64,000 nt of DNA. Source: a virus. The position numbers and the translations under genes were made by a program. Location of the stretch: positions 135,099 to 199,098 of IMG/VR virus record IMGVR_UViG_3300037993_001242; one strand, written 5' to 3'. The notes beneath the pieces are model-generated. The model saw only the letters and a list, made by a program, of their open reading frames with translations. It did no database searches and had not been told where the DNA came from. Position 1 is the first letter of the stretch; each line of letters opens with the position of its first letter. Positions 2,643 through 55,825 of the stretch are shown one piece after another.

Positions 2643-3755
2643 GTGATCGCTGAAACCATCGTCCGCGCTTTGCTGGAAGAAGTTGAAGACCAGCACCGCT
2701 TTGTGACCGTCGTCGTCCTGCGCAACCCGGACGACCCGGAAGTCCTGTTGGTGCAGCGCAAAAATCCGCCGGAAGCAGGCAAGTGGGGCGCGCCGGGCGG
2801 CCATGCCAATGAAGGCGAAGCGCTTACGGACGCAGCCAAGCGCGAACTTAAAGAAGAAACGGGTATTGAGGCCGCCCAACTTCATTACTTTGACCGCGTA
2901 TTCATCCCGGAACGGGATGCCTTCGACAACTTCTACTGGACGGTTGTAGACGATGACGCCAGTGCCCGCCGGGGTGACGATGCCAAACACGTCAAATGGA
3001 CGAAAGTGGCCGAGATCGGCGAACTGGCTTTCAACTGCCACGTACAGATCAAGGACGCGGCTGACCGGGCGTTCGCCATCGGCAAAATTGCCGAATCAAA
3101 AGCCGAGGGCAAGTATGGACGCAACGGCCTGCTGATCGTTTTCGAGGGCATCGACGGCGCGGGCAAAACCACGCAGGTCAGGAAACTGACCGGCTGGCTC
3201 GCCGAACGCGGCTACAAGGTCAAGACCACCAAATGGAATTCATCGGAAATCCTCAACGGCGCGCTGTACAAAGCCAAAAAGCACAAGGAACTTTCGCCCA
3301 TCCTGTTCAGCCTGCTCCACGCTGCCGACCTCACGTGGCGCTACGAGAACATCGTCCGGCCCGCCCTCGACAAAGGCAAAGTCGTAATCTGCGACCGCTA
3401 CTATTACACCAGTTACGTCCGTGACAGCCTGCGCGGCGTCAACGATGCGATCCTCGATTACATTTACGAGGACTGGCGCAAACCCGACGTGGTCTTTTAC
3501 TGCAAGGTTCCCATTCGCACAGCGGTCGAGCGCTTGCTGCGCGAAAAAGGCGTGTATTACTACAGCGCCGGGCGGGACATCGGCTACAAAGGCAGCAAAG
3601 AGGAGTGTGCCATGCAATACGAGGAGGACATGGAAAAGGTGTACAAGCGCCTTTTTGCCAAAGAACCCAGTGTGTCTGAGATTAGTACCGAACGCCCGAT
3701 CAGCGAAATAGCTGATGAAATCAAGGCTATTTTGAAGAAAAAGTTCGATGTTTAA
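2643..3755 (+). CDS. Nudix hydrolase - thymidylate kinase fusion
   Basis: Nudix box GGHANEGEALTDAAKRELKEETGI; dTMP kinase motifs LIVFEGIDGAGKTTQ and VICDRYYYTS. Confidence 0.9.
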   Translation: MIAETIVRALLEEVEDQHRFVTVVVLRNPDDPEVLLVQRKNPPEAGKWGAPGGHANEGEALTDAAKRELKEETGIEAAQLHYFDRVFIPERDAFDNFYWTVVDDDASARRGDDAKHVKWTKVAEIGELAFNCHVQIKDAADRAFAIGKIAESKAEGKYGRNGLLIVFEGIDGAGKTTQVRKLTGWLAERGYKVKTTKWNSSEILNGALYKAKKHKELSPILFSLLHAADLTWRYENIVRPALDKGKVVICDRYYYTSYVRDSLRGVNDAILDYIYEDWRKPDVVFYCKVPIRTAVERLLREKGVYYYSAGRDIGYKGSKEECAMQYEEDMEKVYKRLFAKEPSVSEISTERPISEIADEIKAILKKKFDV

Positions 3756-3810: not shown

Positions 3811-4203
3811 ATGAAAGATACATAGGTTTCAAACGGTTCCTGTCTCCGGCTCTACGCGCTCGTGCGCACGGATGCAGGCATGTCTCCCGGCAAGACAGCT
3901 TCACAGGCCGGTCACGCTTACCTCGGAGCGTTCATCGAGGCTTCCCGCAAAACTCCTGACGCCGTTGCTGTCTACAGCAGCGAGCATCCCACGCCCGGCA
4001 CCAAGGTCTGTCTCAAAGGCAACCTGAACACCCTCCGGCGCGCTCAGGAAGAAGCCCAGAAGGCGGGTATTCCCCACTGCTTGATCATTGACTCAGGCTG
4101 CAAAAATTTCTTCAATGGTGAGCCGACCGTCACGGCGCTCGGATTTGGCCCGGCCACTGAAGAACAACTCACACCGTTTTTAAGGAGACTTCAAGTTTTA
4201 TGA
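3811..4203 (+). CDS. pth2: Peptidyl-tRNA hydrolase, PTH2 family, with in-frame TAG at 3823-3825
   Basis: LYALVRTDAGMSPGKTASQAGHAY, TKVCLK, IIDSG and TVTALGFGP motifs; ATG 3811 is in frame and no ATG/GTG/TTG lies between the TAG and GTG 3862. Confidence 0.8.
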
Positions 4204-4210
4204 ACAATTT

Positions 4211-4356
4211 GAGCAAGTGGCAGAATGGGACAATGCAGACCACGGAGAAAACTACGGCTAACAACCGAGACGGCGAAAGTATACGCGTGAAATCGCTGGA
4301 ACAACGTGAAATCCTAACCGTGCGACTTGGTGGTTCGACTCCACCCTTGCTCACCA
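4211..4356 (+). tRNA. tRNA-like RNA 1 with about 65 extra nt in the anticodon arm
   Basis: Acceptor GAGCAAG/CTTGCTC plus A-CCA; D arm GCA-GAATGGGACAA-TGC; T arm GGTGG-TTCGACT-CCACC; helix CACGG/CCGTG encloses 72 nt. Confidence 0.8.
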
Positions 4357-4362
4357 ATTTAC

Positions 4363-4501
4363 GGGGTGCATTACACACAGAGGAAACTGGCCCTTGGGGT
4401 AAAAGCGCAGACCAGAGAGAACGTGTGGGAAGTAGCATTATGGCAATGCCGCAGTACGCAAGTGCTGTGCTAAGTGGGTTCGATCCCCACCCACCCCGCC
4501 A
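4363..4501 (+). tRNA. tRNA-like RNA 2 with a 63-nt insert in the acceptor strand and a GCAA tetraloop instead of an anticodon loop
   Basis: GGGGTG[insert 4369-4431]G pairs with CCACCCC, then G-CCA; D arm GCATT/AATGC; T arm GTGGG-TTCGATC-CCCAC. Confidence 0.7.
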
Positions 4502-4508
4502 ATTTAAT

Positions 4509-4588
4509 GCGGAGGTAGCTCAGTTGGCAGAGCGCGTGGAGCCTTCACAGGTTTCACGAGGTCGGACGTTCGATCCGTTCCCTCCGCG
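4509..4588 (+). tRNA. tRNA-like RNA 3 with an extended 9-10 bp anticodon stem; loop contains TCA
   Basis: Acceptor GCGGAGG/CCTCCGC; D arm GCTC-AGTTGGCA-GAGC; variable loop AGGTC; T arm GGACG-TTCGATC-CGTTC; no encoded CCA. Confidence 0.8.
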
Positions 4589-4601
4589 ACACTTACAAAC
4601 A

Positions 4602-5093
4602 TCACAACAGTCCGAGACTTTTATTTGTGACAGCCATCTTACCAAATATGCGCACAGATTCCTCGTCAAAGACAGCCGCAGCTTCCTGCGGCGTTGCATG
4701 GTATCCAAAATTTTTACGGCCATTGTTGATATAGATCACAGCGCGCCAAGGCCGTTTGCGATTTCCACGAGGATCAAGTTCAACACCTTTGAAGAAACTC
4801 TTACTGCTGCGCACAACCAGACATTGTCGCCTACTCTTGAGATTGCAGCGCATGTGACTAAAACCAACGTTGTTGAGATCGAAAAACAGTTCGATGGCGT
4901 TTGGTTCGTGCAGCCACGGTTTAACATGATCAATCGTAAAATCATTCACGGAAGCAATCAATTTTCCACAGCGTATACATGTAGCCATACCGGCTTTTAC
5001 TGCCAGCATATAAAGCAACATTTTCCGCAAACGATTACTGGCCGTACCAACTGACATGCCCAACTGCCTTGATTTTTCAGCATTTTTATCCAT
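4602..5093 (-). CDS. HNH endonuclease with C-terminal AP2 DNA-binding domain
   Basis: CIRCG...IDHVKP...SHMRCN HNH core; FKGVE...PWRAVIY...FGYHATPQEAAAVFDE AP2 pattern. Confidence 0.85.
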   Translation of the reverse strand: MDKNAEKSRQLGMSVGTASNRLRKMLLYMLAVKAGMATCIRCGKLIASVNDFTIDHVKPWLHEPNAIELFFDLNNVGFSHMRCNLKSRRQCLVVRSSKSFFKGVELDPRGNRKRPWRAVIYINNGRKNFGYHATPQEAAAVFDEESVRIFGKMAVTNKSLGLL

Positions 5094-5117: not shown

Positions 5118-5438
5118 ATGAAATTCACATCCAAAGACGAATACTTACGCTGGCGTTCCGAGTGGAAAGCCAATTACCAAACCCTCAGCCAGCAAATCCG
5201 AGACGTTAAATTCGCCCGGTGGTTCGAGGATTCACGGCGCGGCGGTGTCAAGATGAACGCGGCGCAGACCCAGCGCTACGAGGCCATCGCCAAAGCGCAC
5301 AAGACCCAGTGGGGCTTCTTCCCCAACCATGCGCTCAAACAGCTTCGGGACAAGGCCACAGCCCTGCTCGCCGAGCGCGTTGCCTCGAAGATCGCGGCGC
5401 AAGAGTGCTATCAGGCTCGCCAACTGCACCCGGCCTGA
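5118..5438 (+). CDS. Hypothetical protein (106 aa)
   Basis: ATG after an A-rich leader; fills the gap between flanking genes. Confidence 0.7.
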   Translation: MKFTSKDEYLRWRSEWKANYQTLSQQIRDVKFARWFEDSRRGGVKMNAAQTQRYEAIAKAHKTQWGFFPNHALKQLRDKATALLAERVASKIAAQECYQARQLHPA

Positions 5439-55303: not shown

Positions 55304-55825
55304 TCCAAATCATTCTTCGCAAATGCACCAACGGCAACCGCAATACCGGCAGCCGGTACCGTCATGCTCTGGAATCTCGGCGTTGGCCGCATACTCAATC
55401 TCGATCTGCTCCTGCCGCGTGCGGCCCGCATGGTGCGCCTTGGTGCAGATTGGATCACAGGTCACGGTCTTTGGGTTCTGGTTGACAACCCGCGCACCGC
55501 ACACCACGCATTTGCGTCCCGGCCTCTTACTGCTCATACGCGTAAAGAACAGCCAGCGCGTGCGTCCACCTGCCCCCTGTTTAAAAAAGCAAGCGACGCC
55601 AAACGATACCAGACCGATGGTTTGTTCCTCACCGGTAACAATAAAACCCGGCCACGTCGTTCCACGCTGGCAAAACTCGCTGTGGATGGCGGCATTAGAC
55701 CCGTATTATTGAAAACACAGAACTGTTTTCAGTGCCCGTGTCACTATCCGCCGGGTCATCACAAATCATGCCACCTGTTATTAAACGACGATCCCACAGC
55801 TAACCGCCGCTCCATTGCGGATAAA

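Follow-up and report, generated by a model that had tools for sequence, protein, structure and literature searches.

RNA2, a 139-nt RNA encoded on the plus strand at positions 4363-4501 of the window (the whole 64,000-nucleotide stretch that was analyzed, i.e., bases 135099-199098 of a 199,098-bp IMG/VR phage record with an estimated completeness of 82%), has a tRNA body in which a closed, GCAA-capped helix takes the place of the anticodon loop and a 63-nt insert splits the 5' strand of the acceptor stem. On balance, it is probably a non-decoding tRNA mimic that keeps its insert and acts as a ligand, competitor or decoy for proteins binding the acceptor/T-arm face of tRNA. The elements of RNA2 are as follows:

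4363..4368 (+): 5' strand of the acceptor stem, positions 1-6, GGGGUG, Watson-Crick paired with 4492-4497 at all six positions
4369..4431 (+): 63-nt insert between acceptor positions 6 and 7 (from sequence and fold)
4432..4434 (+): G7, U8 and A9 (from sequence and the Rfam tRNA alignment), G4432 being able to pair with C4491
4435..4449 (+): D arm, 4 bp, GCAU (4435-4438)/AUGC (4446-4449), loop UAUGGCA with G18 and G19
4450..4469 (+): anticodon-arm substitute, a helix of 7-8 bp with a GCAA tetraloop (4458-4461) and the anticodon absent
4470..4473 (+): variable loop CUAA (from sequence)
4474..4490 (+): T arm, 5 bp, GUGGG-UUCGAUC-CCCAC (from sequence and the Rfam alignment)
4491..4501 (+): 3' strand of the acceptor, CCACCCC, discriminator G4498 and encoded CCA (4499-4501)

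The sequence observation made in the initial annotation is confirmed. The 7-bp acceptor that it had assembled from GGGGTG and G4432 with CCACCCC, followed by G-CCA, is borne out by sequence and fold, and the 8-bp anticodon stem capped by GCAA is present (C4450-G4469 to C4457-G4462), with two of its pairs being G-U. The acceptor pairs are G4363-C4497, G4364-C4496, G4365-C4495, G4366-C4494, U4367-A4493, and G4368-C4492. Altogether, the four helices comprise 24 pairs without a single mismatch, and the CCA end is encoded. The minimum-free-energy fold of 4363-4501 is exactly the tRNA layout with the split acceptor, with pair probabilities of at least 0.92 for the long-range acceptor, 0.94 for the anticodon stem, 0.95 for the T stem, 0.62 for the D stem, and about 0.75 for the helices of the insert. 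Once the insert is deleted by script, the 76 nt that are left are called by ARAGORN, at the default threshold, as a tRNA shape whose "anticodon" has two bases. An alternative and equivalent register has a 7-nt 5' strand (GGGGUGC) with a C7-C66 mismatch and places the insert between positions 7 and 8. Additionally, an identical 18-nt stretch (RNA2 positions 112-129, GTGGGTTCGATCCCCACC) is common to RNA2 and the T-arm region of a tRNA(CUA) gene upstream of PTH2 in a related locus, L015.

RNA2 shares with canonical tRNAs (RF00005) the acceptor, U8, the D arm with GG, the UUCGAUC T arm, the discriminator, and CCA, and its gene lies in a tandem array with short A/U-rich spacers, as do those of phages and bacteria. 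It differs from them in the GCAA-capped helix that stands for the anticodon loop, in the split 5' acceptor strand, and in the U at position 14, which is near-universally A in tRNAs. RNA2 is rejected as a canonical tRNA, since its core (4426-4498, with a mispaired acceptor) reaches 18.4 bits (E = 0.8) with the Rfam tRNA model against a gathering score of 29, and a seven-base loop with U33 and an anticodon is absent, the loop being GCAA. At gathering thresholds, Rfam yields no match in the whole window, RNA3 being missed too owing to the search filters.

The locus is remote from the main tRNA block of the phage, which lies at 50-74 kb and holds approximately 40 tRNA genes and a tmRNA (ARAGORN); a separate tRNA(CUA) gene is found by ARAGORN at 111.5 kb of the phage genome. 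Directly behind the peptidyl-tRNA hydrolase (PTH2) gene, three tandem tRNA-like genes, RNA1, RNA2, and RNA3, follow its stop codon (4203) with short A/U-rich spacers, RNA2 starting 160 nt downstream of that codon. The spacers had been described as AATTT-type, and they indeed read CAATTT before RNA1, CCA-ATTTAC before RNA2, and CCA-ATTTAAT before RNA3. The neighbors of RNA2 are:

3811..4203 (+): PTH2 peptidyl-tRNA hydrolase (Pfam PF01981, E = 2e-17), with an in-frame TAG at 3823-3825 (codon 5)
4211..4357 (+): RNA1, a tRNA body whose anticodon loop holds an insert of about 65-72 nt and which ends in A73-CCA
4509..4591 (+): RNA3, a tRNA body (47.9 bits with the Rfam tRNA model) whose anticodon arm comprises 24 nt
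4602..5093 (-): HNH homing-type endonuclease (Pfam PF01844), convergent with the RNA array
5118..5438 (+): 106-aa helical protein, homologues of which (85-150 aa) accompany PTH2 in 15 loci

RNA1, whose loop reads UCCUAAC (CUA), is found by ARAGORN only at a low threshold with an intron, while RNA3 is the sole member of the array called at default settings. The anticodon arm of RNA3 has 16 nt where the Rfam tRNA model expects 9. Between RNA3 and its orthologue in L004 (3679-3762), G-U pairs are replaced by A-U and a C-G pair by U-G, which keeps the anticodon stem, and the loop is wholly different (UUCACA versus CUCGCG); thus, it is the shape that is conserved and not the anticodon. Judged from this comparison, the loop of RNA3 is not a conserved opal or Val anticodon. 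Its 3' end reads G-ACA here and G-CCA in L004.

Both PTH2 and a neighboring protein of 1011 aa have many metagenome relatives. The nearest relatives carry a different set of RNAs, RNA1 and RNA2 being missing from them:

L011-L014 (PTH2 identity 95%): a single RNA follows PTH2, its tRNA body having a long GCAA-capped hairpin as the anticodon arm; no HNH gene
L004 (PTH2 identity 85%): RNA-X (3497-3670) and the RNA3 orthologue
L015 (PTH2 identity 68%): tRNA(CUA) upstream of PTH2, then an RNA-X orthologue (3331-3499), L015_B, and L015_C

L015_B, an RNA of 123 nt, carries an insert of about 32 nt behind acceptor position 7, and L015_C is a mini tRNA shape of 56 nt. In L004, RNA-X has a normal tRNA body whose D loop is enlarged by an insert of about 100 nt and whose anticodon arm ends in a GCAA cap, and its positions 8-20 (UAGCUCAAUUGGC) match the D arms of real tRNAs of the window phage. 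The L015 orthologue, at 76% identity, keeps the rod-like insert with four compensatory pairs, and its cap has changed from GCAA to GAAA, which is still a GNRA tetraloop; a 186-nt RNA of the RNA-X kind is also present in L027 (about 2156-2341). The conservation of the RNA-X insert in L015 with compensatory pairs, together with the similar form in L027, argues that large inserts are genuine, selected parts of some members of the class. The HNH gene lies behind the array here and in L004 and is missing from L011. The set of RNAs in the array thus changes rapidly, and PTH2 and its flanking genes persist.

The same PTH2 family occurs in 16 IMG/VR loci and in further metagenome contigs, and the more distant phages again carry such RNAs. 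GNRA-capped, CCA-ended tRNA shapes adjoin PTH2 in L004, L011, L015, L022, L023, L027, and L033. Two of them (L022_1 and L023_1), with a GGGG... acceptor, G73-CCA, and 7 bp capped by GCAA, have the layout of RNA2 without the insert, and L033_1 bears UCGG-GCAA-CCGA. A descriptor of the mimics (GNRA-capped hairpin, 3-8 nt, T arm, 7 nt, discriminator, CCA) was scanned over both strands of 359 kb and gave seven matches, six of which, RNA2 included, lie beside PTH2; the seventh, a tRNA-Pro(GGG), is a false match. A covariance model of the class was rejected, since its available members are too few and too varied to be told apart from ordinary tRNAs. Of the features that define the class, RNA2 displays the CCA-ended acceptor/T arm, the closed GNRA-capped arm, and close packing in an array no more than about 1 kb from PTH2. 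The recurrence of the closed GCAA-capped arm beside PTH2 in unrelated phage contigs upholds the earlier proposal of a CCA-ended, non-decoding mimic. Full-text literature searches found no paper describing PTH2-linked anticodon-less tRNA mimics, and the class appears to be undescribed in the searchable literature. What is new in RNA2 is the split acceptor with its 63-nt insert, a feature resting on one sequence.

That proposal had also assigned to RNA2 an added RNA domain with a fold of its own. It holds as far as RNA2 is a mimic and not a decoder, but the insert as a functional structured domain is not supported, and charging of the RNA and its use as a decoy, scaffold or ribosome ligand, which the proposal had also put forward, are hypothetical. 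The helices named for the insert (4369-4431), CACAC/GUGUG and CUGG/CCAG, can indeed form, with purine-rich internal loops; however, the insert alone folds at -12.3 kcal/mol, as compared with -11.5 +/- 2.4 kcal/mol for shuffles (z = -0.34), and a structured domain is thus not above chance. No family was found for the insert in Rfam at E values up to 10, and BLAST searches with RNA1, RNA2, and RNA-X revealed no repeated copy of any of their inserts in the phage genome or in the loci of relatives. An orthologue of RNA2 was absent among phage records, the loci of relatives, and 15 whole viral records. An exact pattern derived from RNA3, scanned over viral and metagenome contigs, matched the L004 contig alone and gave no RNA2 orthologue, and single-protein pattern scans of viral contigs gave no close relative. 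With RNA2 lacking an orthologue in the searched collections and the insert folding no better than shuffles, a function of the insert as a structured domain is unproven. A similarity between the insert and RNA1 (GCAGACCA..GAGARAAC) was rejected as not significant, since 474 of 2000 shuffles score equally well. Complementarity of the insert to the PTH2 leader, the PTH2 ORF, RNA1, RNA3, or the core of RNA2 itself is likewise no better than that of shuffles.

By layout, the nearest experimentally known RNA is T4 RNA C (species 1 RNA, rnaC), a stable 139-nt RNA of unknown role that lies at the end of the T4 tRNA cluster beside segB (PMC3014915). We regard the resemblance as an analogy and not as membership. 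Both RNAs are 139 nt long and lie at the end of a tRNA array with a homing endonuclease neighbor (segB in T4, HNH here), and the predicted fold of RNA C has a canonical T arm (CCGGG-UUCGAAU-CCCGG) after a long closed hairpin, as well as a 5' hairpin domain of about 65 nt. In contrast to RNA2, RNA C lacks a D arm and a clean 7-bp acceptor, its annotated sequence in T4 does not encode CCA, it has no PTH2 neighbor, and the two RNAs have no sequence similarity. YrlA, a Y RNA (RF02553), likewise mimics tRNA without decoding and retains the D/T elbow. However, the arms of YrlA stand in circularly permuted order (T arm, closed acceptor, D arm), and it lacks a free CCA and carries a Ro-binding end helix, whereas RNA2 has the normal order of arms and a free CCA end. 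A match of RNA2 to YrlA was rejected, as it is partial, lies across the RNA2/RNA3 junction, and scores 20 bits where the gathering score is 69.

The PTH2 gene itself carries a conserved stop. In the window, its leader reads ATG AAA GAT ACA TAG GTT, and the start codon, the TAG, and PTH2 all share one frame; thus, three-base read-through by a suppressor is needed, and gating by a four-base codon does not fit. An in-frame stop lies directly before the conserved N-terminal strand of PTH2 in all 19 loci in which the reading frame could be placed (the window, L004, L011, L015, L017, L019-L024, L026-L029, L032-L034, and L036). The stop is TAG in 18 of them, mostly as ACG/ACA-TAG-GTT, and TAA in L026, and several loci have two stops. 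The residue context across the stop (..T * V S D P T L R L Y A L V R..) is conserved, so the read-through looks programmed. Canonical tRNA(CUA) genes are present in the L015 and L027 arrays. The second persistent partner, the 106-aa protein, has the family motif F..K.EYL.WR..WK..Y..LS..IR ... AQ.QY, and its AlphaFold model consists of three helices with a pLDDT of 91; no Pfam or PHROG match and no informative PDB fold match was found for it.

From this setting, we infer the following course for RNA2. It would be transcribed with the PTH2 operon and excised from the packed array by RNase P at G4363, with 3' trimming to the encoded CCA. The RNA would then fold into an L-shaped tRNA body, the sealed 7-8 bp GCAA-capped arm of which would leave it unable to read codons. 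The surfaces presumably exposed are the acceptor/T-arm helix with its CCA end and the D/T elbow. On a tRNA, these are the surfaces at which peptidyl-tRNA hydrolases, EF-Tu, synthetases, the CCA enzyme, and toxins directed against tRNA 3' ends act. Since the acceptor/T-arm face with the CCA end and the elbow is all that remains, RNA2 would most likely be a ligand, competitor or decoy for such a partner. The candidates include the neighboring PTH2, EF-Tu, a synthetase, the CCA enzyme, and a host toxin by which the 3' ends of tRNAs are modified or cut. RNA2 might act within a phage module together with the stop-gated PTH2, the suppressor tRNA, and the small conserved protein of helices. As a lineage-specific expansion, the 63 nt inserted where the acceptor meets the D arm would stay in the mature RNA and would not interrupt the 3' strand of the acceptor/T stack. 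A rapidly changing array with a homing endonuclease beside it fits a role in an arms race, and the constant linkage to PTH2 fits a role in the hydrolase pathway.

Whether the insert does any work in such a mimic is a separate matter, for which a working arm and a tolerated scar appear about equally probable. There is a real, if lesser, chance that RNA2 as it stands is a scarred or decaying copy, i.e., an ordinary 76-nt mimic like L022_1 to which a recent recombination or insertion, perhaps promoted by the neighboring HNH endonuclease, added 63 unselected nucleotides, so that the insert, and possibly the whole RNA, is functionless. The absence of RNA2 from the nearest relatives, with their different RNA set, indicates that it is dispensable or recent, and the quick turnover of the array between relatives, the lack of both orthologues and variation, and the shuffle-like fold of the insert all agree with a scar. 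Furthermore, a six-base direct repeat, GCATTA, flanks the insertion, at 4368-4373 (the 5' edge of the insert) and 4435-4440 (the start of the D stem), as is seen after microhomology-mediated joining, and this repeat hints that the insert originated in that way. Compensatory conservation in relatives is seen for sister RNAs only (RNA-X/L015_A and RNA3). Against decay, all helices of RNA2 are perfect, both halves of the split acceptor included, and its sister RNAs conserve large inserts. The window sequence is letter-for-letter identical in several peat and wetland metagenomes of different years, and four peat DNA runs compared with it are all identical, with zero variation; the persistence in several peat samples of different years argues that RNA2 is not rapidly lost.

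An improbable alternative to the decoy is that RNA2 works as a carrier in a rescue or hydrolase pathway, in which the mimic would be aminoacylated or peptide-bearing and would be a substrate, cofactor or regulator of PTH2, possibly entering ribosomes with an empty A site in the manner of the tRNA-like domain of tmRNA. The constant linkage to PTH2 and the encoded CCA end are compatible with such a carrier. So is the finding that PTH2 translation has to pass an in-frame stop in all 19 loci, by which it would be tightly coupled to the tRNA set of the phage; the phage also encodes a tmRNA. However, no acceptor determinants of aminoacylation are common to the mimics, none of which has G3:U70 and the discriminator of which is G or A, no SmpB-like partner was identified, and the conserved neighboring protein has no informative fold match. 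tmRNA acts in ribosome rescue, which also involves peptidyl-tRNA handling, and its tRNA-like domain resembles RNA2 in having an acceptor and T arm with CCA and no anticodon arm. RNA2 is nevertheless rejected as a tmRNA (RF00023), because its 3:70 pair is G-C, it has neither a tag frame nor pseudoknots, it is called by neither ARAGORN nor Rfam, and the phage has a separate tmRNA. That tmRNA lies at 55346-55771 (minus strand) of the phage genome within the main tRNA block, with an Rfam score of 113.5 bits and the ARAGORN tag ADEANDCPAGLLAQAEAIFANPDAVLNAELAVA.

Removal of the insert as an intervening sequence, which would leave a 76-nt RNA, is unlikely in the extreme. Inserts occupy the anticodon loop in RNA1, the D loop in RNA-X, and positions 6/7 in RNA2, and such varied placement among sister RNAs recalls the non-canonical introns of archaeal tRNAs; moreover, RNA2 without its insert is a clean cloverleaf for ARAGORN. 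Nonetheless, splicing is made unlikely by the lack of a splicing endonuclease (PF01974) or RtcB ligase (PF01139) gene in the 82%-complete phage genome, by insert junctions at which a bulge-helix-bulge motif cannot be drawn on inspection, and by the length of 63 nt, which is far too short for the self-splicing core of a group I intron; in addition, the host is bacterial, as the tmRNA indicates, and the conservation of the RNA-X D-loop insert as a folded rod suggests a retained part. The intron-containing tRNAs of archaea and red algae also bear short inserts at varied cloverleaf positions; RNA2 differs from them in its bacterial-type host and in lacking an anticodon even when the insert is subtracted, as well as in the missing bulge-helix-bulge. 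RNA2 is rejected as an intron-containing tRNA on the same grounds.

The idea that the RNA starts near 4426 as a pseudo-tRNA with a mispaired acceptor, the upstream GGGGTG being coincidental, is very improbable: the Rfam alignment described above begins there, but only four of seven acceptor pairs form in that register, the 4426-4501 version is rejected by ARAGORN at every threshold tried, including 85%, a 68-nt spacer would be demanded that is exceptional among such arrays, in which adjacent RNAs are separated by about 1-8 nt and, in the present one, by 6-8 nt, and a correctly placed GGGGTG has a chance of only about 0.07%. The latter figure applies to placement within a few bases of the usual spacer, as compared with about 0.9% for an occurrence anywhere in the 63 nt upstream; GGGGTG is rare in the genome, with 58 occurrences in 2 x 199 kb (1.5e-4 per base). 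The perfect split acceptor, the spacers of 1-8 nt, and the ARAGORN call on the insert-less sequence thus favor 4363 over 4426 as the predicted 5' end, in line with the start first proposed.

Phage tRNA genes are usually read as helpers in codon usage or as replacements for tRNAs that are cut by host defenses. RNA2-type mimics are tRNA-shaped and non-decoding, with perfect helices and CCA ends, they recur beside one enzyme of peptidyl-tRNA metabolism, and they tolerate or use large inserted arms. If functional, they would point to a level of phage-host conflict or translation control that relies on the part of tRNA not engaged in decoding, and they would provide cases from nature in which a tRNA scaffold displays RNA domains. 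A bolder reading, which we hold only tentatively and consider possible rather than probable, is that the PTH2 module as a whole constitutes an undescribed phage system that controls translation or counters tRNA-directed defense. It would consist of a suppressor-unlocked hydrolase, the helical protein, and fast-evolving mimics, in which PTH2 synthesis would be unlocked only by the suppressor tRNA of the phage itself and the inserts, such as the 63 nt of RNA2 and the rod of about 100 nt in RNA-X, would be adaptor arms that recruit or block specific partners.

Several further features of these loci were observed. The UAGG of the PTH2 gate (TAG and the G after it) has its complement, CCUA, in the RNA1 loop UCCUAAC and in the L022_2 loop UUCCUAAC (L022 3229-3334). 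In L033 (about 2181-2270), a tRNA-like RNA has an 8-bp anticodon stem and a 13-nt loop, GACUACGUAGUAA, which holds CUACGU, the complement of the gate motif ACGUAG that occurs twice in the PTH2 leader of L033.

Outside the window, at 52.3-54.5 kb of the phage genome, a Ro60/TROVE protein of 580 aa is encoded (67.6 and 60 bits). A YrlA-like RNA, with the order T arm, closed acceptor hairpin, and D arm, adjoins the Ro60 gene (loci L009, L010, and L006 5393-5506); its score with the Rfam YrlA model is 39.9 bits, below the gathering score.

Two open reading frames that run over the RNA genes were considered and rejected as spurious. The long one on the plus strand (4200-5054), which covers the three RNA genes and the HNH gene in antisense, has no credible family match, and the one on the minus strand (4169-4438) has only a sub-threshold Pfam match (E = 0.036). 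A region of a relative that is homologous to the plus-strand frame is called as a 245-aa protein (P0059) in the public collection searched, which is an annotation artifact. In practice, gene callers translate straight across the RNA array. Upstream of PTH2, at 2643-3755 of the window, lies a gene for a NUDIX-thymidylate kinase fusion, the homologue of which in one relative has 710 aa, with Hint/homing-endonuclease (intein) domains inserted.
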